NCBI GenBank assembly: GCA_038059695.1
Contig: JBBTIZ010000023.1
Span: 13,427 to 77,426, forward strand
Reading direction: 5' to 3'
From: Planctomycetota bacterium
Lineage (GTDB): Bacteria > Planctomycetota > MHYJ01 > JACQXL01
DNA length: 64,000 nucleotides
The position numbers and the translations under genes are program-made. Every line of letters begins with the position of its first letter. Positions within the stretch are counted from its first letter, which is position 1. The notes beneath the pieces were generated by a model. It ran no database searches. It saw only the letters and a list, made by a program, of their open reading frames with translations, and was not told where the DNA came from. Below, piece by piece: positions 4,358 through 37,003 of this stretch.

Positions 4358-5059
4358 TCACGCAGAGGCATGTTGAATAAACGCCCTAAATAGATTAACC
4401 TGTTCCTGGCTGTCCATCATCCGCTCCGGATGCCATTGAATCCCCAGGCAAAATCCGTCCGGAGATTCTACACCCTCAATTATGGTATCTTCAGCCCGGG
4501 CATTGATAATCAGGTTCTTACCCAACGTTTTAATGGACTGGTGATGCGTGGAATTGGTAATGATGGATTTCCGGCCGAGGATGCGGTGCAAAAGCGTCCC
4601 TTCGCAGAGATACACCTTATGGTAACTCTTTCGGTGACCGATGGCGGATTTAATCTGGCTGGCGATATCCTGAAAGAGAGCGCCGCCTAAAGCCACATTG
4701 ATTAACTGGGCTCCGTAGCAGGTTCCCAGAATCGGCATTTTCAGTTTAAGGGCTGATTTAACCAGCGCTAGGTCAAACCTTTGTTTTAACTCGGGCAGTA
4801 AAATCACCTTATTATTGATTACTTTTTCACCGTAAAAACGCGGCGATAAATCGTGCCCGCCGCTCAAGAGAAGCCCGTCTATTCTATCAAGAATGCGTTC
4901 CAACATCCCACCCGCCCGACTGCCTGCCAGCGGCAAGGACGGCAGTATAACAGGAATGCCTCCGGCCTTCAGCACCGCGCGGCTATATTCCTGGCTGAGT
5001 TTGGCATATCGCCCGTCCTTGGTCAGGTTGCCGTTAATGCCAATAATAGGTTTTTTCAT
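4358..5059 (-). CDS. Class I glutamine amidotransferase-like gamma-glutamyl hydrolase (peptidase C26, PuuD-like)
   Basis: GTCYGAQLINVALGG (Cys nucleophile) and a WHPE motif (IQWHPER) characteristic of the C26 family; catalytic His inferred, not explicitly seen. Confidence 0.65.
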   Translation of the reverse strand: MKKPIIGINGNLTKDGRYAKLSQEYSRAVLKAGGIPVILPSLPLAGSRAGGMLERILDRIDGLLLSGGHDLSPRFYGEKVINNKVILLPELKQRFDLALVKSALKLKMPILGTCYGAQLINVALGGALFQDIASQIKSAIGHRKSYHKVYLCEGTLLHRILGRKSIITNSTHHQSIKTLGKNLIINARAEDTIIEGVESPDGFCLGIQWHPERMMDSQEQVNLFRAFIQHASA

Positions 5060-5107
5060 CTTTTTCTTGCTAAACCCCTTATCATATATTATTTAAAGCA
5101 ATCCGAT

Positions 5108-5181
5108 TGCGGGATCGTCTAACGGTAGGACACAAGACTCTGAATCTTGTTGTTTAGGTTCGAATCCTAATCCCGCAACCA
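5108..5181 (+). tRNA. tRNA-Gln (anticodon CTG)
   Basis: Cloverleaf folds by hand: acceptor tgcggga/tcccgca, U8, anticodon stem caaga/tcttg with loop cuCUGaa, T-arm ttagg-TTCGAAT-cctaa, encoded CCA. Confidence 0.8.
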
Positions 5182-5183
5182 AC

Positions 5184-5256
5184 GCCCCCATCGTCTAGTG
5201 GTCTAGGATATGAGATTCTCAGTCTCAGGACCAGGGTTCGAATCCCTGTGGGGGTA
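5184..5256 (+). tRNA. tRNA-Glu (anticodon CTC)
   Basis: Layout is close to E. coli tRNA-Glu: acceptor gccccca/tgggggt (G1-U72), anticodon loop ttCTCag, T-arm caggg-TTCGAAT-ccctg. No encoded CCA. Confidence 0.8.
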
Positions 5257-5289
5257 TTTTTATATCATTACTTACCGAGAGTCAATTTA

Positions 5290-6474
5290 ATGGCGCTAAA
5301 AAACATCAAGGCCGAGCGGCTGGTACAATTACCGCCCTATATGTTCGCTGACTTTGACCACAAGAGAGACCTGGTCAAAGCCCAATGCAATGACCTGATA
5401 GATCTCTCGGTGGGCGACCCGGATATCCCGCCTTCGGCCCGTCTTAAAGGATATTTCAGGGAGGCGTTGAACGAGCCCAATATCCACCGTTACCCGCCGT
5501 ATAAAGGCACGCGCGCTTTCTGCCGGGCCATCTCCGGCTGGCATAAACAAAAAGGCATTTCTATTAACCCGGATAATGAGGTCTGGTCTCTGCTCGGTTC
5601 CAAAGAAGGCCTGGTCCATCTGATTATGGCGCTGGTTAATCCCGGCGAAGCGGTTCTGCTGCCCAATCCTTATTTTCCCTGTTATCTCTCGGCTATAATT
5701 ATGGCCGGCGGAGTCCCGGTGGATATGCCACTGCTCAGGGAAAACAATTTCCTGCCGGACCTCAAATCCATTAAGCCATCCGTGGCCAAAAGAACCAAGT
5801 TGATGCTCCTGAATTACCCAAACAATCCCACCTCGGCTGATGCGCCCAGAGAATTTTACGAGGAAGCAGTCCGGTTTGCTAGGAAATACAACATCGTCAT
5901 CTGCCAGGATGCGGCTTACAGCGAGATGTATTTCAATAAGCCGGCGGTTTCCATACTTTCTATAAAAGGCGCCAAGGATGTGGCTGTGGAGATGAATTCA
6001 TTCAGCAAGATGTTAAATATCGCCGGCTGGCGCATCGGCTGGGCCGCCGGAAATCAACAGGTAATCAGAGCGCTCGGGCAGATAAAGATGAATATCGACT
6101 CCGGCGCCTTTCTGGCCATCCAGCGGGCCGTTACCAGAATGCTTACGGAAAATACCGGACAGACCCAAAAAGAAGTAACCCAAATCAGGGAGACCTATAA
6201 ACGCCGGCAGGATATTATGGTAAAAGGCCTGACCCGAATCGGACTTGACCCGATAGTCCCGGATGCCACCTGCTTTATCTGGCTGCCCCTGCCCAAGGGC
6301 TGGAAGTCCTCAATGGAATTCTGCGAATATCTCCTGACCAAACTCCATATCCATACCAATCCGGGCATTGGCTTCGGCAAATACGGCGAGGGCTATATCA
6401 GGATTTCCCTGACATCACCGGAATCCGTTTTACTCCAGGCCATTAAAAGATTCAGTTATGCGAATCCTCAGTAA
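5290..6474 (+). CDS. PLP-dependent class I/II aminotransferase, LL-diaminopimelate aminotransferase (DapL)-like
   Basis: ATG at 5290. The track start at 5248 is a GTG inside tRNA-Glu. LSVGDPDIPP motif and PLP-lysine region SFSKMLNIAGWRIGW. About 394 aa. Confidence 0.6.
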   Translation: MALKNIKAERLVQLPPYMFADFDHKRDLVKAQCNDLIDLSVGDPDIPPSARLKGYFREALNEPNIHRYPPYKGTRAFCRAISGWHKQKGISINPDNEVWSLLGSKEGLVHLIMALVNPGEAVLLPNPYFPCYLSAIIMAGGVPVDMPLLRENNFLPDLKSIKPSVAKRTKLMLLNYPNNPTSADAPREFYEEAVRFARKYNIVICQDAAYSEMYFNKPAVSILSIKGAKDVAVEMNSFSKMLNIAGWRIGWAAGNQQVIRALGQIKMNIDSGAFLAIQRAVTRMLTENTGQTQKEVTQIRETYKRRQDIMVKGLTRIGLDPIVPDATCFIWLPLPKGWKSSMEFCEYLLTKLHIHTNPGIGFGKYGEGYIRISLTSPESVLLQAIKRFSYANPQ

Positions 6475-22998: not shown

Positions 22999-23056
22999 CA
23001 GATATACACAGATAAATGCGAACACGAATGGCACGAATAGAACGAATATCACGAAT
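22999..23056. repeat. Array of short direct repeats (cacagat x3, then NNcgaat x4), one of the CACGAAT-family arrays
   Basis: cacagatgcacacagatatacacagataaatgcgaacacgaatggcacgaatagaacgaatatcacgaat. Related arrays at 25871-25966, 35522-35640 and 52663-52722. Confidence 0.6.
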
Positions 23057-24940: not shown

Positions 24941-25867
24941 CTATATTACATACCCCACCACATACGGATTGAAGGTGACACTCATATTTCCGTTGGCATC
25001 AGTGAACGCATATTGGAACGAGCCAGCGATTATGGGCACAATAACCTGACCGCCGTAGACCTGATTGACATTACGCGCCTCTACGCCGATAGCGTAACAT
25101 TCAGGTTGTGTTGCATCGCGCCTGAGACGGCAATTGAGCCAACCCTGGGGCGGCGGGGCAATGCTCTGCTGCACCAATTCAATCTGCAAGATTAATGCCG
25201 TGGCCTCTGGCGGAATACTCGGATTCGGAGCCGAGGGCATCCAATCTTGGTTGCCCATCACCATCAAACTGGTCAACTGTATCCGGGTCGGCAGGAAGGT
25301 GATTCTGCTTCCCCCGCCCGCGCCGGGCGCGAGTTTCTCGGCCGTCACCGCGCCGTTGGCGATTTCGCTCGTTCCCACTGCGTTAGCCGCAATCTCGGAA
25401 GCGCCGACCGAATTGGGCGCCAGTTTGGATGCGGTTATGGCATTATCCGCTATCTTGGCATTAGTCACGGCGCTGGACGCCAGTTTTCCGCTGGTTACAT
25501 TCAGGTCCTTGATATTATCGCTCTCCACCGCATTAACCGCTATCTTGGCTCTGGTAATCGCCCCGTCTTTGATTTCCGAGCTCTCCACTTGCGGCGTAAT
25601 CGGCCTGATAAGCGGCGATGGCGGAACGATTGGCAGAACCAATTTATCCTGGGTAATCGTCCGGTCCGCAATCTTGTCGTTGGTTACGCACAGGTCAGCC
25701 AGTTTATTGGTGGTGACGCACTCCTCCTGCAACTTAGCGCTGTTGACAGCGCCGTCGGCTATCTTATCGGTCGTGACCGCGCTCTTGGCAATCTTGGATG
25801 TCGTGATTGCATAGGTCGCGATGTTTGAGGTCTTTACTTCGTTAGGTTTTAACATATAAATCTCCAA
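24941..25867 (-). CDS. Tandem nonapeptide-repeat protein (x-A-V-T-x-x-K-I/L-A periodicity) with a C-terminal globular domain of about 130 aa; fibre/surface-type
   Basis: Roughly 18 consecutive 9-residue units, e.g. SAVTTDKIADGAVNSAKLQEECVTTNKLADLCVTNDKIADRTITQDKL... The repetition is also visible at the DNA level. C-terminus from RITFLPTRIQ... is non-repetitive. Confidence 0.5.
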   Translation of the reverse strand: MEIYMLKPNEVKTSNIATYAITTSKIAKSAVTTDKIADGAVNSAKLQEECVTTNKLADLCVTNDKIADRTITQDKLVLPIVPPSPLIRPITPQVESSEIKDGAITRAKIAVNAVESDNIKDLNVTSGKLASSAVTNAKIADNAITASKLAPNSVGASEIAANAVGTSEIANGAVTAEKLAPGAGGGSRITFLPTRIQLTSLMVMGNQDWMPSAPNPSIPPEATALILQIELVQQSIAPPPQGWLNCRLRRDATQPECYAIGVEARNVNQVYGGQVIVPIIAGSFQYAFTDANGNMSVTFNPYVVGYVI

Positions 25868-25870
25868 TCT

Positions 25871-25966
25871 TTAACACGAATCACACGAATCCGGCGAATC
25901 GCACGAATAATCCATTAATTCATTCGTGTCATTCGTTCCCATTCGTCCCATTCGTGTTCGTATTTT
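25871..25966. repeat. CACGAAT-family array with palindromic arrangement (4 forward, then about 4 inverted copies)
   Basis: cacgaatcacacgaatccggcgaatcgcacgaat ... attcgtgtcattcgttcccattcgtcccattcgtg, in the intergenic region between the two cassette genes. Confidence 0.6.
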
Positions 25967-26031: not shown

Positions 26032-26826
26032 TTACGGTGTTGCCACCTTTATCTCCAGGTATTTCCGGCCGTCTATCAAAATCCAATCGCAATGCGAGAC
26101 CCCGGCCGTGGCAAAAGCCACATAAGCCACGTTCTGCAAAGAGGCAATCAGATTATTGATATGGTCGTTCTCCTGAGTCATGACAGTCGGGTCCCAATCC
26201 GCGCTAATCAGCGTCTTGCCTGACTGCACGATTCGGTTAACCACTGCCGACTTCAGGGCCGTTCTCATATCCGGCATCACCCGGGCCACGTTGATGGGCC
26301 CGCCCAGGCCGACCTGGTCGTCGCCCCTGAGCAGCCGTTCGGTCTTGATATCGCCGGTCAGCCACATGGCCGCTATCGGCGCCATACCTATACCAATCTC
26401 CCGTGAGCCGGTAAAAGGCAGGACGCTCCGGGCCACATGCTGTCCATAGACCTCGGCTGAGGCGTCAATCGCCTCCTTATACCGCTTGCAGGGTTCGCCA
26501 TCCACGGTCTCGAACGCCTGGGCCAGTGAACCGCGGTAGTTCTCATAACCATTGGCGATATTATCCGCCTGCTTGCGGACAATCCGGTTACGGTCCAGAC
26601 CTGAACGGGACACATAAGCCGGATTCATAGTCGGCGCGTATGCCGTGGCCGCCGGCAAAGCCATTTTGGACTTATAATCGGACTCATTGCCGATGGCCTG
26701 TTGCATCTGCTGATAGGTCAGGTCAGCGTTATTCTTGGTCCCGCGCTTCCAGCGCTCCACCTGGACCTCCCCGGCCTCTGCCAAATCCAGCAACACGGCC
26801 AGTTTTACCTCACTGATTGTTCCCAT
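26032..26826 (-). CDS. Hypothetical protein (264 aa), no recognisable domain; first gene of the cassette
   Basis: Long ORF with a balanced composition. No motif I can assign. Confidence 0.45.
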   Translation of the reverse strand: MGTISEVKLAVLLDLAEAGEVQVERWKRGTKNNADLTYQQMQQAIGNESDYKSKMALPAATAYAPTMNPAYVSRSGLDRNRIVRKQADNIANGYENYRGSLAQAFETVDGEPCKRYKEAIDASAEVYGQHVARSVLPFTGSREIGIGMAPIAAMWLTGDIKTERLLRGDDQVGLGGPINVARVMPDMRTALKSAVVNRIVQSGKTLISADWDPTVMTQENDHINNLIASLQNVAYVAFATAGVSHCDWILIDGRKYLEIKVATP

Positions 26827-26843
26827 AATCTAATCTCCTTTTC

Positions 26844-26900: not shown

Positions 26901-26968
26901 ATCGTTTTAGAATCAGCCGGTTGGGCTACCGGTTCACGATAGCCCGAACCCGGCTGAGACAGATGAAG

Positions 26969-27052
26969 TTATTTCTTCACCTTATCGCGAATCACCGTAA
27001 GAACGATTTCCAAGACCGTCCTGATGATGCGCCTCCAAAAACTCTTTTTCAT
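26969..27052 (-). CDS. Candidate small ORF (27 aa), basic/hydrophobic peptide MKKSFWRRIIRTVLEIVLTVIRDKVKK
   Basis: Strong RBS AGGTGGA 7 nt upstream of the ATG. A stable hairpin (26913-26958, agccggttgggcta/tagcccgaacccggct) lies immediately downstream. Not in the ORF track because it is under 60 aa. Confidence 0.3.
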   Translation of the reverse strand: MKKSFWRRIIRTVLEIVLTVIRDKVKK

Positions 27053-27330
27053 AGTTGTTTCCACCTATTTTGTTATTTAAATGACTAACTGCCAAACAGG
27101 CATCAAGCAGATACTCATAGAAGACAAGCCGGGGCCGGGGCAAGCGGCATGACTCACCTGCGCCCGATCATGCGCCCTGGTCTTGTGTCCTGCTAATAAC
27201 ATACCGAATAGTAAGGAACTCTTCAAAGAGGGACGAACGATTACAGATTGTTTAAGATTGGCTGTTGCAACCGATTGTATTCTAAGGAGTTATGCGAGAC
27301 GGTCAAAATGAACGAAAATGAAATATGAAA

Positions 27331-28473
27331 TTATTCATCCGTAGATGGATGCGTATTGAGAGATTCCTTCAATCTATTAATATTCGGGCGGGCTTTACCA
27401 GAAGATGTTGGAGCAACGATTTCAATATCCTTTAAAAATATCGGGCATAGATAACCCTTTTTACTATCAAGACGTCCGATTTCTGGTAATCCGGCTGATA
27501 CTAATACCTTGTTTATTTTGCTGATTGCCCCGCTGATACGGTTTTTATAGTTTTCCGGCTCAAGCTTATAATCCTCCATTTTCCAGCCACACGCCTTGAC
27601 AATATCTTCTAAAGAAATATAAGTATTCTTGGTCTTGCCGGAAACCTTATCAAGTATTCTTAATAGGATTTTATGCGTCTGGTTTATTAATCCTATTAGC
27701 TGTTTATCCTTGTATTGGAATACGCTTTTGGTCAGGTTTATTTTTGATTTCTTTGCCTTGCTGAACGAAATGATTTTCTCCTTCTGGCTGATTTTAGTAA
27801 GGATATCCTGGCTGATAACCCAATTCTTATCGCCGAAAGCGTCTGCAAAATTGACATAATGAATATTCCTATCCTCTAATATCCGGCGAGTATTTTGGCT
27901 AATCTTATCAAAGAAAGGCATCAGGACAATCCCTGCCTGGTATCTCGCTATTTGGGATGGTATGCTCAAAAGCAGTGTCCCGGCTGTCTTGGGATTACTG
28001 CACAGGGCCAGAATAATCGCGGTTGACTTTCCCCTGACATTCAAAACGCCGATAAAATAAAGCCGGTCGTCAAGTTTGTCATAGTTACCAGCCAGATTAT
28101 TATCATTACGGATTAGTTCTACGAATGCCCTAATATTAAAGGAATACCTGCATAGGTCGTTTTTATCAATAGAAACCATCCCTTCAGATGGATGTATCAT
28201 ACAAAATGCCTCAAGGTTTCCGTCCTGTTTTTTGACGGATAATGTGCAACCGTGTGGACAGCGGGGGGATTTAATATTTTCGATTACACCATCGGAATGG
28301 TTAATATAACTTAAAATATTCTTCTTGGTCAAATCGGCACAGTTTGATGGAGAAATGGCGAGCAGTTCTTTTTTGCTAAATAAGGAATTAGGGCTTTTCT
28401 CTATCTGCTTTAAAAGGAACTTTATCATTTTCTTTAATGCCGATATCTTCCAGGTACTTATTGATAATTTCAT
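27331..28473 (-). CDS. Hypothetical protein (380 aa) in the Type III R-M island, last gene of the co-oriented operon
   Basis: AT-rich codon usage matching the island. Cys/His cluster SPRCPHGCTL...AFCMIHP. Degenerate P-loop-like GVLNVRGKST. Real start possibly the internal Met MIKFLL. Confidence 0.45.
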   Translation of the reverse strand: MKLSISTWKISALKKMIKFLLKQIEKSPNSLFSKKELLAISPSNCADLTKKNILSYINHSDGVIENIKSPRCPHGCTLSVKKQDGNLEAFCMIHPSEGMVSIDKNDLCRYSFNIRAFVELIRNDNNLAGNYDKLDDRLYFIGVLNVRGKSTAIILALCSNPKTAGTLLLSIPSQIARYQAGIVLMPFFDKISQNTRRILEDRNIHYVNFADAFGDKNWVISQDILTKISQKEKIISFSKAKKSKINLTKSVFQYKDKQLIGLINQTHKILLRILDKVSGKTKNTYISLEDIVKACGWKMEDYKLEPENYKNRISGAISKINKVLVSAGLPEIGRLDSKKGYLCPIFLKDIEIVAPTSSGKARPNINRLKESLNTHPSTDE

Positions 28474-29545
28474 TATATTTTTTGCTTCCCAAGTCAGTAC
28501 TGCTGGGCGGGGTTATTTCAAAACTCACTTCTATTGCTTTTCCATTAACCTGTAATATAAATAGAAATTTAGCCGAAGTCAATTCGCCTGAATCTATCCC
28601 TAATCCGGCAATGTCATTATTAAATGTCTGGTTAATATCAGTTGAATCTATGCGAATAGTCGGTTTTGTAGAACCATTTAGGACCATAGTTACGGCAGTT
28701 AATTTAACCGACCGTATTGTCTCATTGACGGGGAAACTAAAATCATCTTCTTGAAGTGGTTTTAGGATATAGGTGTCATCTCTATCAGGGCGCATCGCTT
28801 GACTTTTGTCACAGATAATAATATCGGCAAAAACATCAATATATTTTTCTCTGTCTTTTCGAAGTGAAGTATGTACGGAAAAAGATGTTTTCCCGTCGTA
28901 TTGCAGAATATCCTCATAAGCGGGTCTAAAAATAATGGTTTCTGTATTTACCTCTTTGTCTTCATCTTTCAAGACCAATTGATGCTTTTTATTTTTCCCG
29001 CGTATTACTGCAATAATCAATTTGCCATTTTCCTCATAATGCCTGATAATACAATCCTTCCCTTGACGCCTGTCTTTAAACCATGCTTTAATCTGCGCCT
29101 TGAACTGTTCCATTTTTCCTGGCGTTATTGTAAAGCTGGTACATTCCATTTTATGTCGGCTCAATTTATTGCCTGAGCCATAAAGCAGGTAATAATCGCT
29201 GAGATGGTTATAGGCCGGTTTACTCTTCAGGAATATACCGAGTATCAATTGGTGTTGGTTTTCTTTCCCCGTGGACGCAATATGATATTTCTGGATTACA
29301 TCCGGGATAAAACCAGTCATCGTTTTAGCAATATCATAAAGACGTGCTATTTCTTCTTCAATCGTATCTTTCAGGTCGGTATCCGTGAGATTATCTAAAT
29401 ATGCTATAACCGTGCTAAAAGGCGCCGTTGATTCTTTTAAGTTAAGCGTAATATGATACTTCCTAAAATATTCCTCTAGAATGTCTGGAGTTGATATTGC
29501 CGCATCCAAAAACTCAGTTACCTTGGTAGAACGAAACTTACCCAT
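28388..29545 (-). CDS. Hypothetical protein (385 aa) immediately downstream of res, same strand
   Basis: No recognisable motif. Tightly packed after res (res ends 29565). Confidence 0.45.
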   Translation of the reverse strand: MGKFRSTKVTEFLDAAISTPDILEEYFRKYHITLNLKESTAPFSTVIAYLDNLTDTDLKDTIEEEIARLYDIAKTMTGFIPDVIQKYHIASTGKENQHQLILGIFLKSKPAYNHLSDYYLLYGSGNKLSRHKMECTSFTITPGKMEQFKAQIKAWFKDRRQGKDCIIRHYEENGKLIIAVIRGKNKKHQLVLKDEDKEVNTETIIFRPAYEDILQYDGKTSFSVHTSLRKDREKYIDVFADIIICDKSQAMRPDRDDTYILKPLQEDDFSFPVNETIRSVKLTAVTMVLNGSTKPTIRIDSTDINQTFNNDIAGLGIDSGELTSAKFLFILQVNGKAIEVSFEITPPSSTDLGSKKYNEIINKYLEDIGIKENDKVPFKADREKP

Positions 29546-29564: not shown

Positions 29565-31946
29565 TCAACCTAATCTTAATTCTTCCCAATCGCTCCAGTC
29601 ATTCCGCAAGCATTTTTCCCAATCGTATTGTGCTTTTTGGTTGATTTTCCAAATGCCATTTACCGGAACGACTATTCCGCCGAAGAGTTTCTTACCCTTT
29701 TTAGTCTGTTCTTTGATATACTCCTGCAATCGTTCTGATTTTGCCTTGGTATAACTGCTACCCCCCCAGTCGCCCATATCCTTTGTCTCAAAAACGCCTA
29801 TTCTTCCATCCGCAAACCGGACTAAATAATCAGGATAGAATGTATGGACCACTCCGGTTGGATATTCATATTTAATGCCGAAATAATCCTTCTTGTTTTC
29901 GCCGTTCTTCCACCACCAAACGATGTTTTTAGCATTCGTTTTATCCTCTAAAAACCTCTCGAATTCCCTTTCGGGATTAGTGCGGTCAATATTCAAATAG
30001 CAATTATCATAGACATAGTTTTTAACCTTGAGCAATTCGTCGGTATGCGCGTTATAAAAACTCTCGTTTGGTATCTCGAAATCATAAATCTGTTCGCTCT
30101 CCTCAACACGCTTGGCAATCTCTTTCTCCCGAACAGTTTTATACTCCTCAACCGCTTTTAACAGAATACGCTCAAAGATATCCCTATTGCCGTTATGGAC
30201 AAAGATTTTCTGTATCATCATCGCTTCTTCATCCCAATCCTTAGCGCCCAGATGTCGCATAAACCAGACGTAAATCGTATTCTTGACCTTCGGCACCGAC
30301 CGCTTAATATTTTTGAATGAGCCAAGATGCTCCTTAATAATCTGCACAAATACCGCATCCAGATCGTTACCGGCAATATTCAAACTGGCTTTCTGGGCAG
30401 AATCTATTTCGCCCTCTAATTCGTCAAAAGTCTTGCCATCAATCTTTGCATCTCGGATAATTTCCTGCTGGTATTTCTTTAAATCAACAACAATACCTTT
30501 TTTCTCAAGCAGTTTCTTATTCTGGTCAAAGAATTCCCTTTGTTTAATGCCAAACTCCGCGCAGGCAACCTTCTCAAACACCGGGTCAAAACTCGAGGTG
30601 ATATCTCCGTAATCAGCCCGCGATTTATAGTAGGAGCTAAGCTTTATATCCTTATAACAATCTTTAAGCGTCCCCTTTAGATGCTTGATGATATTCGGAT
30701 TATATTCTTCCTTTTTGACAATAATGCTCTGGACGTTGGTGTATATATATCCGGTATTCAGGGCTTCGCTTGGGTAATGCCTTAATTCCGGCATCCGCAG
30801 TATCCGGCCCACGGTCTGGATTTCAAAGGTCTCGCTGTGTGATTCCCGGAATTTGACCAGAATATGCGCCCGGGGACAATCCCATCCCGTATCAACTACT
30901 TGCTTGAATACAAAAAATTCTATTATATTATCCGGTTCGGCAATCGATTCTATTTCTTCTATTGCTGGATAGCCATGAATTCGAATTGCTAATTTCTTAT
31001 TTGCTTCAGCAATACCTTTCTTCGCCAAAAATTCTTCAACAGCTTTTTTCTTGTCATCTCCGGCGTCGGCATTCGGTATCTGTATTAAAGCCAGCGGATT
31101 AATATTTGCCCCCTCCGCCTCAAATAATCTCTTTAATTCCAACCTCTTCCGATATGCTGCCTCTAAAACTACTTCCTGCGAATCGGTTTCATTATTGGCA
31201 ATTTTATCTATCTTCTCATTAATGATTATTTCTTTCTTTATTATACCTGCATCAATGACATCTTTCGGCTCTACACAAACATACCCGGCAATCCCCCGCT
31301 TTTCATCTCTGCGGTCAGGAATAAGTTTTGGCGTGGCGCTCATTTCCAGAATAATATCGGCGTTTATCTCGTCCCGCAATTCGTTGGTTCGTTCAGCCGT
31401 GGCGCCGATATGGCTTTCGTCTATAATCATTATTACCTTCCGTTGTTCCCGTGTTCTGGTAAGGACATCCCTGAAATTTATCTTTTCTCCGTCCTTCATC
31501 AGGATGTTTTTCCAATCGCCGGTTTCCTTATCTTTACTCCGTAATTTCTCCCAGTTAACCACTACAACCTCGTTACGGACAATCCGTTCCCTGCCGCCGG
31601 AAAATTCATCCTCAACCAAAGACACCCTCGGCGCTCCGCCGTAAATCTTTTCTAAAGCGCGTTTACTCTGAAGATGTAATTCGCCCTTACCAATACTCAC
31701 CCAAAGAAAACAAATATCCTCATCTGGTAATTCTTTAATAATCTCCTCAATAAACTTAGCTGTCATCAGGGTCTTGCCGCTTCCGGTCGGGGCCTGGAAA
31801 ACACAGACCTTTTTCATTCCCTCGTTAGCCAGCAGTTTCTTAACGGCGGTAAGCAATTGCTCAATGGCTGTTTCCTGATACGGCTTAAGGTCAATATTCA
31901 TAAATATCCTCGTATATATCCAGAATCTTCTGCGGAATCGGCTCAA
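29565..31946 (-). CDS. res: Type III restriction enzyme Res subunit (SF2 helicase plus C-terminal PD-(D/E)xK nuclease)
   Basis: Walker A QAPTGSGKT, DEAH-like IIDESH, helicase motif VI region, C-terminal nuclease motif PDYLVRF...GVFETKD. Probable start at the MNIDLK Met. Confidence 0.8.
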   Translation of the reverse strand: MSRFRRRFWIYTRIFMNIDLKPYQETAIEQLLTAVKKLLANEGMKKVCVFQAPTGSGKTLMTAKFIEEIIKELPDEDICFLWVSIGKGELHLQSKRALEKIYGGAPRVSLVEDEFSGGRERIVRNEVVVVNWEKLRSKDKETGDWKNILMKDGEKINFRDVLTRTREQRKVIMIIDESHIGATAERTNELRDEINADIILEMSATPKLIPDRRDEKRGIAGYVCVEPKDVIDAGIIKKEIIINEKIDKIANNETDSQEVVLEAAYRKRLELKRLFEAEGANINPLALIQIPNADAGDDKKKAVEEFLAKKGIAEANKKLAIRIHGYPAIEEIESIAEPDNIIEFFVFKQVVDTGWDCPRAHILVKFRESHSETFEIQTVGRILRMPELRHYPSEALNTGYIYTNVQSIIVKKEEYNPNIIKHLKGTLKDCYKDIKLSSYYKSRADYGDITSSFDPVFEKVACAEFGIKQREFFDQNKKLLEKKGIVVDLKKYQQEIIRDAKIDGKTFDELEGEIDSAQKASLNIAGNDLDAVFVQIIKEHLGSFKNIKRSVPKVKNTIYVWFMRHLGAKDWDEEAMMIQKIFVHNGNRDIFERILLKAVEEYKTVREKEIAKRVEESEQIYDFEIPNESFYNAHTDELLKVKNYVYDNCYLNIDRTNPEREFERFLEDKTNAKNIVWWWKNGENKKDYFGIKYEYPTGVVHTFYPDYLVRFADGRIGVFETKDMGDWGGSSYTKAKSERLQEYIKEQTKKGKKLFGGIVVPVNGIWKINQKAQYDWEKCLRNDWSDWEELRLG

Positions 31947-33405
31947 GTGTTACACCTTTCCAATCATGAAAATCATTTTTATCCAGCCCGAACGGGTCAA
32001 GTTCAAAGCAATAGAGAGTTTTCTCGCCTGTCATTTTATCTAATTCTTTCTTGAGTGATTTTAATTCAGTCCGGTCAGGCGAATAATATACTGCCATAAT
32101 ACGCTCACCCTGCTCAAAGATACGGTAATCGTCCGTCTTCTTCTTCTCCTCAAAAATACCCTCTCTGAGGCAAAGCATCTCAGTGCATTCCTTGGTAATA
32201 CGGATTTTCAGGGTGTCCTTGCTAAAAGTCCGCTTCACAAAGGCGGTCTTGAAATATTTAAGTTCATCACTATGATCAGAAAGGCGAGGGTAGCCACTCA
32301 TGCATTTTTTTATTCGTGGATAGCATACTTCTTCGGCAATTTCATTTTCATTATTTGTACACAATATAAATTTTCTATTTCCCCCATCTTTTCTATTAAG
32401 TTCTAAAACCGCATGACCAGTTGTCCCTGAACCAGCGAAAAAATCTAAAACTATCGCTTCTTTATTATCATCTATACATATTTGTAATGTATCAAAAACC
32501 GCGTATAGCGATTTGGGATAATCAAAAGACCTTGATTTTCCAAGTATTTTTTGTAGCAATATTGTTCCATGAGATGAAGCATCATATTTTGGATCAGCCC
32601 ATACCGTTTTCGGCTTTCTGCCACCCTTTATCCTATCTTTTGCGAAAACTGTATACTTGCCATTATTCTCTTTAATAACAATTTCAGTTTCAGCTTTCTC
32701 CGTAAAACTCACCTTACCCCACCGCCAAACCCTTTTTCCATCATGTGAATCAATCGGTAAAATTTTAACCAAATCTTTATTCTTTTCTTCTTCTACTGAA
32801 ACTCGTTTTGTTTTTTTATTGTAATATATCGGATAGAAAAGATTAGGCCTTTTATCGGGAGTTGAATTAGACCCTGTTCTTTTTAGGGGTAGTAATCGGT
32901 AAAAAGATATTTCGTCTTCTAATGGAAAACCCTCGACCTGTTCTTCTGTTAGCTTTAATTTATTAGTTTTAGTAACCTGGGTATTTAGTCCATAGAAAAG
33001 AGCGTATTCGTGAGAGGTTGCAAAATATTTATCGTCGCTTCTTCCTCGAGGGTTGTGCATGATAGTAACCACCCCAAGTTTATTACCCTCCCCAAAAATT
33101 TCGTTCATCAATAAATTGAGATTTCCAATTTCATAGTCATCAATAGTTACAATTATTATTCCTTCGTCTTTTAATAAATTTTTAGCAAGGCGCAAGCGTT
33201 TGCTCATAAACGAAAGCCATTTGCTGTGCTTATAGGTGTCATCTTTTTCTACATACTGATTGTTGTATTTCCAGCTCTTATTACCCGTATTGTATGGTGG
33301 GTCAATATAGATAACATCAATCTTGCCTTGATGGGTATAGTTCAAAACAGATAAGGCGTGGTAATTATCGCCTTCTATACAGGATGTTAACTGGTTTAGA
33401 GTCAC
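31891..33405 (-). CDS. mod: Type III DNA methyltransferase Mod (beta-class N6A/N4C MTase), main reading frame
   Basis: Motif IV DPPY (YIDPPYNTG) precedes motif I FDFFAGSGTTGHAV, which is the beta-class order. This frame begins at a GTG immediately after a C9 homopolymer. Confidence 0.8.
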   Translation of the reverse strand: MTLNQLTSCIEGDNYHALSVLNYTHQGKIDVIYIDPPYNTGNKSWKYNNQYVEKDDTYKHSKWLSFMSKRLRLAKNLLKDEGIIIVTIDDYEIGNLNLLMNEIFGEGNKLGVVTIMHNPRGRSDDKYFATSHEYALFYGLNTQVTKTNKLKLTEEQVEGFPLEDEISFYRLLPLKRTGSNSTPDKRPNLFYPIYYNKKTKRVSVEEEKNKDLVKILPIDSHDGKRVWRWGKVSFTEKAETEIVIKENNGKYTVFAKDRIKGGRKPKTVWADPKYDASSHGTILLQKILGKSRSFDYPKSLYAVFDTLQICIDDNKEAIVLDFFAGSGTTGHAVLELNRKDGGNRKFILCTNNENEIAEEVCYPRIKKCMSGYPRLSDHSDELKYFKTAFVKRTFSKDTLKIRITKECTEMLCLREGIFEEKKKTDDYRIFEQGERIMAVYYSPDRTELKSLKKELDKMTGEKTLYCFELDPFGLDKNDFHDWKGVTLEPIPQKILDIYEDIYEY

Positions 33406-33596
33406 TGGGGGGGGGCGGTAATGGCTTTGTTCTTTACTTCCTTAAGAATCGGCAGGGCGTTTTCTGAATCTTTCTCAAACTGTTCCTTGGTATGTTCCTC
33501 ATCCCAGACCAAGCCGTATTTTTTGCGGCTTTCTAATTTCTCTATTCTCTTAATTAATTCTTTCTTATCCCAATCCTGATAGGTATTCTTCGGCAT
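33402..33596 (-). CDS. mod: N-terminal fragment of Mod (64 aa), separated from the main mod frame by a homopolymer frameshift
   Basis: Peptide ...YGLVWDEEH... resembles Type III Mod N-termini. Ends ...AITAPPQ-stop, reading through the C9 tract. One extra C fuses it in-frame to MTLNQL... Confidence 0.6.
   Translation of the reverse strand: MPKNTYQDWDKKELIKRIEKLESRKKYGLVWDEEHTKEQFEKDSENALPILKEVKNKAITAPPQ
33407..33415. repeat. Homopolymeric G9 (C9 on the coding strand) tract at the mod frameshift site
   Basis: gtcactgggggggggcggtaatgg. C10 (or C7) would give one continuous mod ORF of about 568 aa. Confidence 0.85.
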
Positions 33597-33764
33597 AAAT
33601 ATTAATAATAAACATCTTTTTCAGGAAAGCAACAAATAACCTGCGTTTTTAAGTAGGGTATAGGATTAATACACACCAGCACACCATATCATAAACACTA
33701 TATGATGGCGCGCTATGGGGTAGGTATGGTTATTGTTTACACCATACGGCCAAGCCCTGTATTA

Positions 33765-33874
33765 TACATCAGCCGCGCATAATCTGTATATCAGCCGTGC
33801 GCATGTTATATATCAGCCGGTGACAAGTTATATATCAGCCGTGCGTATAGTGTATATCAGCCGTGGGCGTAGTG
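33765..33874. repeat. Five tandem 22-bp direct repeats (consensus TATCAGCCGTGCGyaTaGTgTA) in the mod-operon upstream region
   Basis: tacatcagccgcgcataatctgta / tatcagccgtgcgcatgttata / tatcagccggtgacaagttata / tatcagccgtgcgtatagtgta / tatcagccgtgggcgtagtgta. Confidence 0.8.
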
Positions 33875-34066
33875 TACACGATTATTGCGCTTACTCTATA
33901 TAAGCTAAGCGGTTACTGTATATGGCTCATGCCCTCACCACCAGTCAGGGAGTCTTGAGGGGTACTACCCCCCACCCTCCCCCCTCCCCCTGTTGGGAAA
34001 GTGAAAAGATGAGAGTGGAAAGATGAAAGCTTGAGAAAATCAGGAAACACGGATTGCGCAGGTGTT

Positions 34067-35518
34067 TTAAGGCTTCTTCCAACAGACCCTTAGTTCTCGC
34101 GCTGCCTTGACCTCATCCAGCCGGCCGACGGGGGTAGTTGTTGGCGCGGACTTGACCACATCGGGTGTGGTTTCGGCCTCTTTGGCGATAGCAATCATGA
34201 CCTTGATGAATTCGTCCAGGGTCTCTTTGCTTTCGGTCTCGGTCGGTTCTATCATCAATGCCTCGTGAACGATGAGCGGGAAATAAATCGTGGGTGGATG
34301 GTATCCGTAGTCCAACAGCCGCTTGGCTATGTCCAAAGTCCTGACCCCGAATTTCTTTAACTGAATCGTCGCGTCCAGGACACATTCGTGCATGCAGTGC
34401 CGGTCATACTGGAGATGGTAGTGTTGCTTGAGTTGGGCCATGACGTAGTTGGCATTTAAGACGGCCATCTGGCTGGCCTTTTTCAGGCCGGCTGGCCCCA
34501 TCATCCGGATATAGACATAGGCCCGAATCAGGACCGCGATGTTGCCGAAGAATCCCTTGATTTGGCCGATAGAATCGGGACGGTCATAGTCCAGCGAGTA
34601 TTCGTCGTTGTTCTTGACGACAATCGGCACGGGCAGGTAAGGCGTGAGTTTGGCTGTGACCGCAATCGGGCCCGCACCCGGACCGCCGCAGCCGTGCGGC
34701 GTGGAAAAGGTCTTGTGGAGATTAAAGTGCAGGACATCGGCGCCGGCCAGGGCCGGAGTGGTGATGCCCATAATGGAATTGAAATTGGCGCCGTCCATAT
34801 AAATAAATCCGCCGCTGTCGTGGACTATCTTGCAAATCTCCACAATGTGCTCGTCAAACAGGCCGAGCGTATTGGGGATAGTCAGCATCAGGCAGGCCAC
34901 TTCATTGTTCATCTTGGCCTTCAGGTCCGGGATATCGACATTGCCGTGCGCATCGGACTTGACCTCGACGGCATGGAATCCGCACAGGGCGCCAGAAGCC
35001 GGGTTGGTGCCGTGCGCCGAATCCGGGATAAGGACCTTGGTTCTCTTATCATTATGTTTCTTGAAATACTGATGGATGACTTTTAGGCCGGTGTATTCGC
35101 CGTGCGCGCCGGCCGCCGGGGTCAGCGACACGCCGTCAAAACCGGAGATTTCCTTCAAGAACTCGCCCAGTTCATACATTATCCGCAGGATGCCCTGAAC
35201 CGTTGAGGCCGGCTGGTAGGGATGGAGCTGGGCAAAGCCGGTCAGGCCGCACAGGGTCTCGTTGACCTTGGGATTGTATTTCATGGTGCAGGAACCGAGC
35301 GGATAGAAACCGGTATCAACGCCGAAGTTCTTGCGGGCCAGATTGGTATAATGGCGCACCAGGGTGAGTTCGTCCACCTCAGGCAGGTCTGCCAGCGTCG
35401 GCCTTAAGGCGGCGGACGGCAATAATTTATTTATATCCTGGGCCGGCACGTCCAGGGCCGGCAAGGCGCAGGCGCTCCGGCCCGGACGGGATTCTTCAAA
35501 GATAAGCTTGTCGTTCAT
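34067..35518 (-). CDS. gcvPB: Glycine dehydrogenase (decarboxylating) subunit 2
   Basis: Typical GcvPB sequence throughout, e.g. [16 protein letters not shown]. Confidence 0.85.
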
Positions 35519-35521
35519 AAA

Positions 35522-35640
35522 ACTAATTCTAACACGAATGTCACGAATAGAGCGAATGGCACGAATAAATTCGTGTGATTAGTCGCATTCGCTTCGCGGT
35601 CTCTTCGAGTTCGTGTGATTCGTGTTCTATACTTAATCCT
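35522..35640. repeat. CACGAAT-family array with palindromic arrangement between gcvPA and gcvPB
   Basis: cacgaatgtcacgaatagagcgaatggcacgaataaattcgtgtgatt...gagttcgtgtgattcgtgtt. Confidence 0.6.
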
Positions 35641-37003
35641 TAATTGTGTTTACGAGTTTATCAATCTCCTCTTTCGTGTTCATTTCGGTCACACACAGGA
35701 GCATGGCGTTCTTTAGTTTGGGATAAAATCTCTTTAAGGCCAGGCCGCCGATGATATTGCTTTTCAATAGTTTCTTGTTAATCTGCTCCGGATTCCTGGG
35801 ACATTCGATAACGAATTCGTTGAAATACGGGCCGCTGAACAGGAGTTTGAAGCCCGGGATTTTGGATATCTGGTCAGCCGCGCAGTGCGCCTTTTGTAGA
35901 TTGAGTTCAGCCACCTGCTTCAGGCCGGTCTTGCCCACGGCGGACAGGTAGATGGCCGTCCGGATGGCGCAGAGGGCCTGGTTGGAACAGATGTTGGACG
36001 TGGCCTTTTCCCGCCTGATATGCTGTTCCCGGGTGGACAGGGTCAGGACGAACCCGCGCCGGCCTTTGGCGTCTGTGGTCTCGCCGACTATCCGGCCGGG
36101 CATCTTGCGGATATGGGCCATCTTGGTAGCCATAAAACCCAGATGCGGGCCGCCGAATGACATCCGGTTGCCTAACGGCTGGGCATCGCCCACAACTATG
36201 TCAACTCCGTAATCGCCGGGCGGCTTGAGCAATCCTAAGGAAATCGGATTGACCACCGCTATCAAAACAACCCCCTTATATTCCCCCTTTGTTAAGGGGG
36301 ATTGAGGGGGTTGTCTCCGGATGATTTCAGCAATTTTATCCGCCGGTTCGATGATGCCGAAGAAATTGGGCGATTGATAAGCCACGCAGGCCGTATTGCT
36401 ATCTAATACTTTTTCTAATGCCTCTACTGAGGTGACGCCATCGGAGAAATCTATTTCTATGATATTGATATCCAAGTCCTCCAGCCAGGCCTTGACCGTA
36501 GCCCGGTATTCCGGATGGATGGTCTTGGAGATAATGACCTTCTTTTTGTTGGTGGTGTGGAGCGCCATGAGGATGGCCTCGGCCAAAGCGGTCGCGCCGT
36601 CATAGAGCGATGCGTTGGACACCTCCATGCCGGTCAGCTGGCACATCATGGTCTGGTATTCAAAAATAGTGGTCAGCGCGCCCTGGCTGGTCTCGGGCTG
36701 GTACGGGGTATAGGCCGTATAGAATTCGCTCCGAGCAGCCAGGTGGTCCACCACGGCCGGGATAAAGTGGTTGTAACAGCCCGCGCCCAGGAAAGACGGG
36801 GTGTTGGCGACATTGGTATTTTTGTCTGCCAGTTCGGCCAGTAGTTTGGTGGCTTCCATCTCGCTTAGCGGGGCCGGCAGGGCCAGGGGTTTAGTCAGAT
36901 GTAATTCTTTGGGGATGCTGGAAAACAGGTCTTCCAGGTTGGCCACATTGGCCGCGGCCAGCATTTCCCGGATGTCAGTATCAGTATGCGGAATATAGGG
37001 CAT
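35633..37003 (-). CDS. gcvPA: Glycine dehydrogenase (decarboxylating) subunit 1
   Basis: Typical GcvPA sequence (ISLGLLKPPGDYGVDIVVGDAQPLG). Contains a short hairpin-encoding insertion near 36271-36320. Confidence 0.85.
   Translation of the reverse strand: MPYIPHTDTDIREMLAAANVANLEDLFSSIPKELHLTKPLALPAPLSEMEATKLLAELADKNTNVANTPSFLGAGCYNHFIPAVVDHLAARSEFYTAYTPYQPETSQGALTTIFEYQTMMCQLTGMEVSNASLYDGATALAEAILMALHTTNKKKVIISKTIHPEYRATVKAWLEDLDINIIEIDFSDGVTSVEALEKVLDSNTACVAYQSPNFFGIIEPADKIAEIIRRQPPQSPLTKGEYKGVVLIAVVNPISLGLLKPPGDYGVDIVVGDAQPLGNRMSFGGPHLGFMATKMAHIRKMPGRIVGETTDAKGRRGFVLTLSTREQHIRREKATSNICSNQALCAIRTAIYLSAVGKTGLKQVAELNLQKAHCAADQISKIPGFKLLFSGPYFNEFVIECPRNPEQINKKLLKSNIIGGLALKRFYPKLKNAMLLCVTEMNTKEEIDKLVNTIKD

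Follow-up and report, generated by a model that had tools for sequence, protein, structure and literature searches.

Two adjacent genes, here named A and B, form a conserved cassette that, in distant bacteria, ends restriction-modification (R-M) operons of several types. We describe the pair from a stretch of Planctomycetota DNA of 64,000 nucleotides (contig JBBTIZ010000023.1; hereafter the window), in which A and B follow mod and res, a pair assigned to Type III R-M from profile matches and motifs (Table 1). We put A-B forward as a good candidate for a hitherto undescribed controller of restriction systems, or accessory to them, with a minority chance that it represents a new mechanism. Full-text literature searches for RdgC-like or RexA-like proteins with a link to R-M or defence islands turned up no account of the module.

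A and B are real genes rather than chance open reading frames (ORFs). A first-pass annotation of the window had placed two ORFs of 385 and 380 amino acids (aa) here, overlapping by about 40-85 nt and starting within about 20 nt of the res stop, and had suggested that they share one operon with the R-M genes. The ORFs were recovered on the minus strand at the positions described. A starts 19 nt past the res stop behind a ribosome-binding-like stretch, AAGGGGG, and its overlap with B is 86 nt from the first ATG of B or 41 nt from M16 (28428). Because all 40 of 40 homologues of B begin at the residue matching M16 (MIKFLL...), B is most likely a protein of 365 aa that starts at 28428. The minus strand has no terminator-like site between res and A, and those inside B are weak. 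The tiny or negative gaps, the lack of a terminator at the junction and the recurrence of the order R-M, A, B in many unrelated genomes together place A and B in one transcription unit with mod and res, as the earlier annotation had proposed.

A word search returned seven close homologues of A and eight of B, and a profile of B found 43 relatives. A full hidden Markov model scan with the A profile matched 855 representative clusters at E≤1e-3 (308 at E≤1e-10 and 108 at E≤1e-30), which makes A a member of a sizeable unannotated family. No family in Pfam, NCBIfam, PADLOC or PHROGs was found for A, B, 51 diverse relatives of A or 42 relatives of B. In PADLOC-DB 2.0.0, which covers systems to 2023, A, B and the 51 diverse A members had no significant match, the best scores being 0.021 for PDC-M69A and, in one member, 6e-4 for PDC-S19. 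Profile searches against sequences in the PDB matched neither protein (for A, nothing at E≤10), and we found no relatives on plasmids by tblastn and none in a scan of viral contigs. The earlier description of both proteins as domain-less is thus correct at the level of sequence, where no library matches them, and incorrect at the level of fold: models point to a CENP-N/RdgC-type fold in A and an OmpR-type winged helix in B.

The genomic context of the pair was surveyed in 25 distinct loci, mostly metagenomic contigs, seeded with relatives of at least about 30% identity to A and with the B family (loci are numbered L, proteins P). They fall into five phylum-level groups: Planctomycetota; Deltaproteobacteria and Desulfobacteraceae; Eubacteriales; candidate division LCP-89; and contigs with Bacteroidota-type secretion tails. 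Wherever a locus offers enough sequence, B follows A directly, usually with a 4-nt overlap (hmmsearch on called ORFs and BLAST). A is split into pieces of ~285 and 70-90 aa in L004, L006 and L010, and a search of representative proteins uncovered a natural A-B fusion of 755 aa, P0200. This constant adjacency, together with the fusion, indicates that A and B serve one function and probably form one complex.

Absence of synteny with R-M or other defence genes in other genomes was named in advance by the first-pass annotation as an outcome that would refute its reading; such synteny is clearly present. An R-M gene lies directly upstream of A, on the same strand and 0-190 nt away, in about 19 of the 25 loci. 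The upstream gene belongs to a Type III Res/Mod system in the window, L001, L002, L008, L019, L022, L029 and L033, and to a Type I HsdR/M/S system in L012, L013, L015/L030, L016 and L018. Elsewhere it is a Type IIG or Type I-like methylase, with or without a specificity subunit (L014, L017, L026 and L037), a Type II AccI system (L006) or orphan methylases (L004). Other arrangements include A-B immediately upstream of Res-Mod (L027) and convergent with a Type I operon (L031). In two further loci R-M genes lie within 5 kb, the direct neighbour being a P63C/HTH protein in L009 and a SIR2 protein in L011, where a TIR-domain gene is found further upstream; no R-M was seen in L010 or L028. Integrases (L008), a large serine recombinase (L023), DnaG-like primases (L001, L018 and L028) and a PrimPol (L014) are found nearby, and the frequency of such neighbours marks the host loci as mobile islands.

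Protein A is predicted to bind DNA, and its predicted fold resembles those of CENP-N/Chl4, CENP-L and RdgC. Its AlphaFold model, built from a shallow set of seven sequences, is of moderate quality (pLDDT 60.6 overall, about 80 for residues 1-255) and unreliable in the C-terminal third (<50 for residues 258-385). The model comprises a helical N-domain, an alpha/beta domain and a beta-rich C-terminal part, and it combines, as in CENP-N and CENP-L, the helical N-domain with a structural match to the LN-homology domain. The highest fold-comparison scores were to CENP-N (10.5, 10.3 and 9.7), Chl4 (9.5) and CENP-L (8.0), followed by RdgC (7.4), Iml3 (6.4) and YejK (5.4). In an independent comparison, Foldseek put CENP-N/Chl4 in all of the top 11 places, with E down to 1.4e-6. 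CENP-L/N have been described as related to the RdgC ring (PMC9235857), the N-domain of YejK as similar to RdgC and Cenp-N (PMC11229321), and lambda RexA, the DNA-binding sensor of the Rex exclusion system, as having an RdgC/Iml3/Chl4 fold (PMC11077077). These descriptions make RdgC, RexA and CENP-L/N a single class of DNA-gripping fold, whose known members pair up as dimers to build a ring or vault around duplex DNA and show no preference for sequence (PMC9235857, PMC11229321, PMC11077077).

The likeness of A to RdgC, lambda RexA and CENP-N-CENP-L (Chl4-Iml3) is one of predicted fold and probably of the way in which the proteins work, with no detectable similarity in sequence: Pfam RdgC matched none of 51 A-family members, and hhalign gave the A profile a probability of 0.1% against E. 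coli RdgC. A also lacks what would place it in the lambda RexA family, namely a sequence or structure match joined to a RexB-like membrane partner. Whereas RexA works with the membrane channel RexB, the partner of A is the winged-helix/zinc protein B; A is also longer than RdgC or RexA and, unlike RdgC, RexA and CENP-L/N, is tied to R-M operons. DNA binding by A is predicted from its fold class, and A may form a dimer or ring as known members of that class do. The middle domain is basic (pI 9.1) and the whole protein mildly acidic. R207 is the sole near-invariant polar residue across the broad A family, so no active site is apparent.

Protein B was modelled from 42 sequences with higher confidence (pLDDT 86.6) as a winged helix (about residues 1-42), beta-hairpins that carry a zinc site, a helix plus alpha/beta domain (about 99-215) and a C-terminal winged helix. 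The Cys/His cluster that the earlier annotation had thought suggestive of metal binding proved to be a conserved CCCH site: in the 365-aa numbering, C57 is present in 100% of the family, C61 in 95%, C76 in 100% and H79 in 93%. Its spacing, C-x3-C-x14-C-x2-H within beta-hairpins, is that of a structural zinc site, and family conservation supports its assignment as a structural zinc ribbon predicted to bind metal. For the alpha/beta domain we considered a PD-(D/E)xK nuclease and rejected it, as the D...(D/E)xK residues are not conserved.

By structure comparison of the model, the C-terminal domain of B has the OmpR/PhoB (Trans_reg_C) winged-helix fold and probably works in a like manner, again with no match in sequence: 0 of 42 B-family members matched Trans_reg_C at E≤1. 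One of the 51 members of the A alignment scored 0.0024 against Trans_reg_C, below the gathering score; the output does not name it, and it is probably the fusion P0200. B differs from OmpR and PhoB in having no receiver domain with a phospho-acceptor, and in carrying a winged helix, a zinc ribbon and an alpha/beta domain upstream of the OmpR-type domain. The protein is basic and, like A, predicted to bind DNA. Its N-terminal ~220 residues are common to every A-linked B, and onto this core are joined at least four unrelated or distant C-terminal domains (the window/L004, main L001, P0013 and L036 types). The window-type C-terminal domain also occurs in P0011, which has neither a B-type N-terminus nor an adjoining A gene and is the last gene of another R-M-like island, L005. 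The NCBI locus tag of P0011 belongs to the same metagenome-assembled genome (MAG) as protein A, an identical copy of which is tagged AAB038_02055. The OmpR/PhoB-type domain is exchanged between lineages, as would be expected of a sequence-specificity module.

What might such a cassette do? Tentatively, we favour a module that binds DNA and controls the R-M operon, or restriction itself, or serves as an adaptor. A and B would be two subunits of one cassette, co-transcribed as the last genes of R-M operons on mobile islands, and would assemble into a complex on DNA in which B anchors the complex at particular sites and A clamps the duplex as RdgC or CENP-L/N do. The complex would then control the R-M operon, either by acting on transcription from its promoter or by holding restriction back while the operon becomes established in a new host or when DNA is under stress, and A-B itself would not kill the cell. 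This role is the most likely because neither protein carries a domain for killing or cutting, and the pair is always reliant on an effector operon next to it; we recognised no effector, catalytic domain or conserved catalytic site in A or B. Regulation or an adaptor role is therefore no less likely than defence by A-B alone, and a new defence function is hypothetical. Among the closest functional parallels are the C proteins of Type II R-M systems, the BrxR/CapW WYL regulators, CapH-CapP, CapK-CapS and RptR, which, like A-B, are portable DNA-binding modules that stand beside many kinds of defence system, some of them two-component as A-B is. However, those regulators are encoded 5' of their operons, are smaller and belong to other families, whereas A-B stands at the 3' end and lacks a recognisable protease, kinase or WYL sensor domain.

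A lesser possibility is that A-B acts as an independent defence module or guards the R-M system. In this scheme A, in the manner of RexA, would sense an infection-specific state of DNA or of DNA-protein complexes, or would respond to inhibition of the restriction enzyme, following the logic of PrrC, and would trigger an effector that we have not recognised, the alpha/beta domain of B or a host factor. PrrC (EcoprrI) and RloC, also among the closest functional parallels of A-B, come from extra genes within or next to Type I R-M loci and go into action once restriction has been blocked (PMC12707154). A and B resemble them in being extra genes embedded in R-M loci; PrrC and RloC, though, are ABC-ATPase-like anticodon nucleases with clear catalytic domains, and none was recognised in A or B. 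We give similar, doubtful standing to a further proposal in which A-B is a sequence-targeted DNA clamp, built on the fold of RdgC, lambda RexA and the kinetochore pair CENP-L/N, and a new kind of partner for restriction enzymes, either sensing infection or the inhibition of restriction and backing up R-M, or acting on translocating Type I and Type III motors.

Less likely again is that A-B serves as a physical co-factor of restriction, a clamp, roadblock or loader for translocating or sliding ATP-dependent enzymes. It might, for instance, bring them to a halt and so provoke cleavage, or it might protect host DNA. Cleavage by Type I enzymes takes place where translocation meets a block. The fold class of A forms rings or vaults around duplex DNA, and about 16 of the 25 loci pair A-B with Type I, Type III or related helicase/IIG-like systems, whose motors are of superfamily 2 (SF2). 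However, in L006 the pair comes after a Type II AccI system, in L004 after orphan methylases and in L009-L011 and L028 after genes other than R-M; a generic roadblock needs no swappable sequence-specific domain, and contact with Res or HsdR has no support in this analysis.

The DNA at the two ends of the Planctomycetota islands raises a further alternative, that the pair belongs to the island rather than to restriction. Upstream of mod, the window carries a G-rich box gggggaggggggagggtggggggtag, five 22-bp direct repeats and a promoter-like site. The repeat core GGCTGATATAYA occurs six times in the window against 0.5 expected, and five of the six copies lie in the array. This leader of ~375 bp (window 33650-33990) is 90% identical in L005 (3817-4189), where it opens with the same G-rich box, holds the same repeat array and precedes a different R-M-like operon, one of MmeI/Eco57I methylases and a T5orf172-ResIII protein that ends in P0011. 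Similar G-boxes and arrays with a 22-bp period, built on another repeat core, occur in L004 (about 480-800) and L006 (about 4880-5270). TRF detected no 22-bp arrays in the other eight loci scanned (L001-L003 and L008-L012), and beyond the Planctomycetota loci neither TRF nor inspection of upstream regions by eye revealed a shared motif upstream of the operons. A search of the upstream leader against Rfam gave only a spurious, sub-threshold miRNA match on the G-rich box. We also observed that the islands of L004 and L006 open with a gene for an HTH_17-Peptidase_S24 (LexA/CI-like) repressor (1059-1652 and 5436-6011, respectively), with short repeats of the ATACTATAAT type ahead of it; this hints at DNA-damage-responsive control of those two islands.

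The opposite end is conserved in a similar way. From about residue 94 of B to its stop and through 430 bp of non-coding DNA (window 28146-26902), the window and L004 share 87% DNA identity, and L005 matches the same stretch at 77% over 641 bp. Downstream of B alone, identity is ~93% over 437 bp with L004 (7917-8346) and 82% over 223 bp with L005 (11185-11390), while divergence is much greater in the N-terminal part of B and in the flanking 264-aa gene. In this lineage, then, a conserved leader and a conserved 3' end enclose exchangeable cargo. The downstream DNA has no match in Rfam and could be an RNA, a regulatory region or a recombination tract. A 27-codon ORF within it, MKKSFWRRIIRTVLEIVLTVIRDKVKK, is kept in L004 with eight nucleotide differences, five of them synonymous, and possibly encodes a small amphipathic or membrane peptide.

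A-B might therefore be the backbone of a mobile island, with B as a winged-helix initiator or partition-type protein acting on iteron-like repeats and island ends, and with the R-M genes as cargo. The island ends, comprising the G-box and 22-bp leader on one side and the 3' part of B with 220-430 bp of downstream DNA on the other, are conserved around variable cargo in the Planctomycetota. Arrays of 22-bp direct repeats are reminiscent of the iterons on plasmids, to which Rep proteins with two winged helices bind, and integrases, a serine recombinase and DnaG-like or PrimPol primases are often nearby. Against this stand the lack of arrays in the eight other loci scanned by TRF, the lack of recombinase, transposase or replication motifs in A and B, the position of the pair against R-M genes whatever mobility genes are present, and the lack of relatives on plasmids or in viral contigs. 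We regard this explanation as improbable. Returning to the controller that we favour, we also considered the OmpR-type domain of B as the reader of the 22-bp array, because domains of this type bind direct repeats. The idea is weakened in two ways. First, domain type and repeat core do not co-vary: L004 has the window-type domain with another core, and L006 has the L004 core with another domain. Second, the eight other loci scanned have no array. It stands as a lead rather than a finding.

Finally, the suggestion that B is a degenerate P-loop NTPase or a metal-dependent enzyme, prompted by the stretch GVLNVRGKST and the Cys/His cluster of the window protein, can be set aside as very improbable: the P-loop likeness noted in the first-pass annotation dissolves in the family, where G127 alone is invariant, most members have D-N-R-V in place of GKST and the Cys/His spacing and conservation are those of the structural CCCH ribbon. 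The Walker A motif is not conserved (position 129 is K in 93% of the family and L in the window protein), G127-T136 is predicted to form a beta-hairpin rather than a strand-loop-helix, and no NTPase in the libraries matched.

In the window, the cassette and its R-M partners occupy a low-GC island at ~27.0-34.0 kb, with a GC content of 0.36-0.43 inside against 0.50-0.55 in the flanks (window composition). The ORF list gives five minus-strand ORFs inside: a 64-aa ORF, mod, res, A and B. Mod matches PADLOC MTase_III (5e-79) and Pfam N6_N4_Mtase (1.8e-30), and its translation carries DPPY and FAGSGTT motifs. Res matches Pfam ResIII (8.4e-20) and PADLOC REase_III (1.4e-15), with GSGKT at 55, DESH at 176, PD at 705 and ETK at 720. 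Both proteins thus bear the profile matches and motifs of a Type III R-M pair, to which we assign them. As assembled, mod is split at a run of nine C residues. A single Mod ORF of 568 aa is restored by one added C (C10) or two removed (C7), and the split is either a phase-variable switch of the phasevarion type or an assembly error in the MAG.

Table 1. Positions in the window of the operon, its leader and the DNA downstream.
Feature	Position	Strand	Basis or content
G-rich box gggggaggggggagggtggggggtag, at the upstream edge of the island	33962-33990	-	Read directly
Five 22-bp direct repeats, core GGCTGATATAYA	33763-33872	-	Sequence reading, motif count
Best sigma-70-like promoter match, TATACA-18-TATAAT, within the last two repeats	33761-33790	-	Consensus match only
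64-aa ORF, N-terminal piece of Mod cut off by the frameshift	33402-33596	-	ORF list, sequence reading
Homopolymer C9 (coding strand) at the mod frameshift	33407-33415	-	Sequence reading
mod, Type III DNA methyltransferase, 504-aa ORF as present	31891-33405	-	Profile matches, motifs
res, Type III restriction subunit, SF2 helicase and PD...ETK nuclease motif	29565-31946	-	Profile matches, motifs
Protein A, 385 aa, ATG start	28388-29545	-	Predicted helical N-domain, alpha/beta domain (CENP-N/L-RdgC-type fold), beta-rich C-terminal domain
Protein B, 365 aa from M16 (longest ORF 27331-28473, 380 aa, ATG)	27331-28428	-	Predicted winged helix, CCCH zinc ribbon, alpha/beta domain, OmpR-type winged helix
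Conserved non-coding tail 3' of B	26902-27330	-	DNA comparison with L004 and L005
27-codon ORF MKKSFWRRIIRTVLEIVLTVIRDKVKK in the tail	26969-27052	-	ORF in conserved DNA

On the upstream side the island is flanked by an ORF at 35633-37003 (456 aa) that matches GDC-P, the glycine-cleavage P-protein, in a family scan, and the ORF at 34067-35518 (483 aa) looks by eye like a second subunit of the same protein. The other flank holds two conserved minus-strand genes at 26032-26826 (264 aa) and 24941-25867 (308 aa). No Pfam family was found for either, and the 308-aa protein contains internal repeats. In L004 and L006 the cassette is likewise followed by these two genes (30% and about 60% identity), so that related genomes carry different R-M cargos at one chromosomal site. 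The final 55 bp of the L005 contig (11476-11530) are 100% identical to window 26775-26829, the start of the 264-aa gene; strains that live together may carry the window and L005 islands as alternative alleles of a single site, or the contig may reflect an assembly break at a repeat. No tRNA was found near the island, and neither the island ORF list nor the family scans contained an integrase at its edge. Outside the island we noted short ACGAAT arrays with 9-nt spacing at 23024-23056, 25876-25908 (and 25920-25955) and 35534-35592, in three intergenic regions just 5' of gene starts, with seven matches against 0.06 expected. They resemble one array in L004 (10466-10502) and may be a lineage-specific regulatory element.

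R-M is the most common form of bacterial defence, yet how the Type I and Type III systems carried on mobile islands are controlled, become established in a new host or are backed up is poorly understood. A-B is widespread, with hundreds of A clusters, and unannotated, and it lies at the 3' end of several R-M types in distant phyla. As a controller, the pair would bring a new class to the regulators of R-M; as a sensor or co-factor, it would add a new layer to restriction. Were it to act as a clamp that partners restriction enzymes, A would be among the bacterial proteins most similar to CENP-N at the level of fold. Either way, the predicted structure of A would extend the RdgC/RexA/CENP-L/N fold to a new biological setting.

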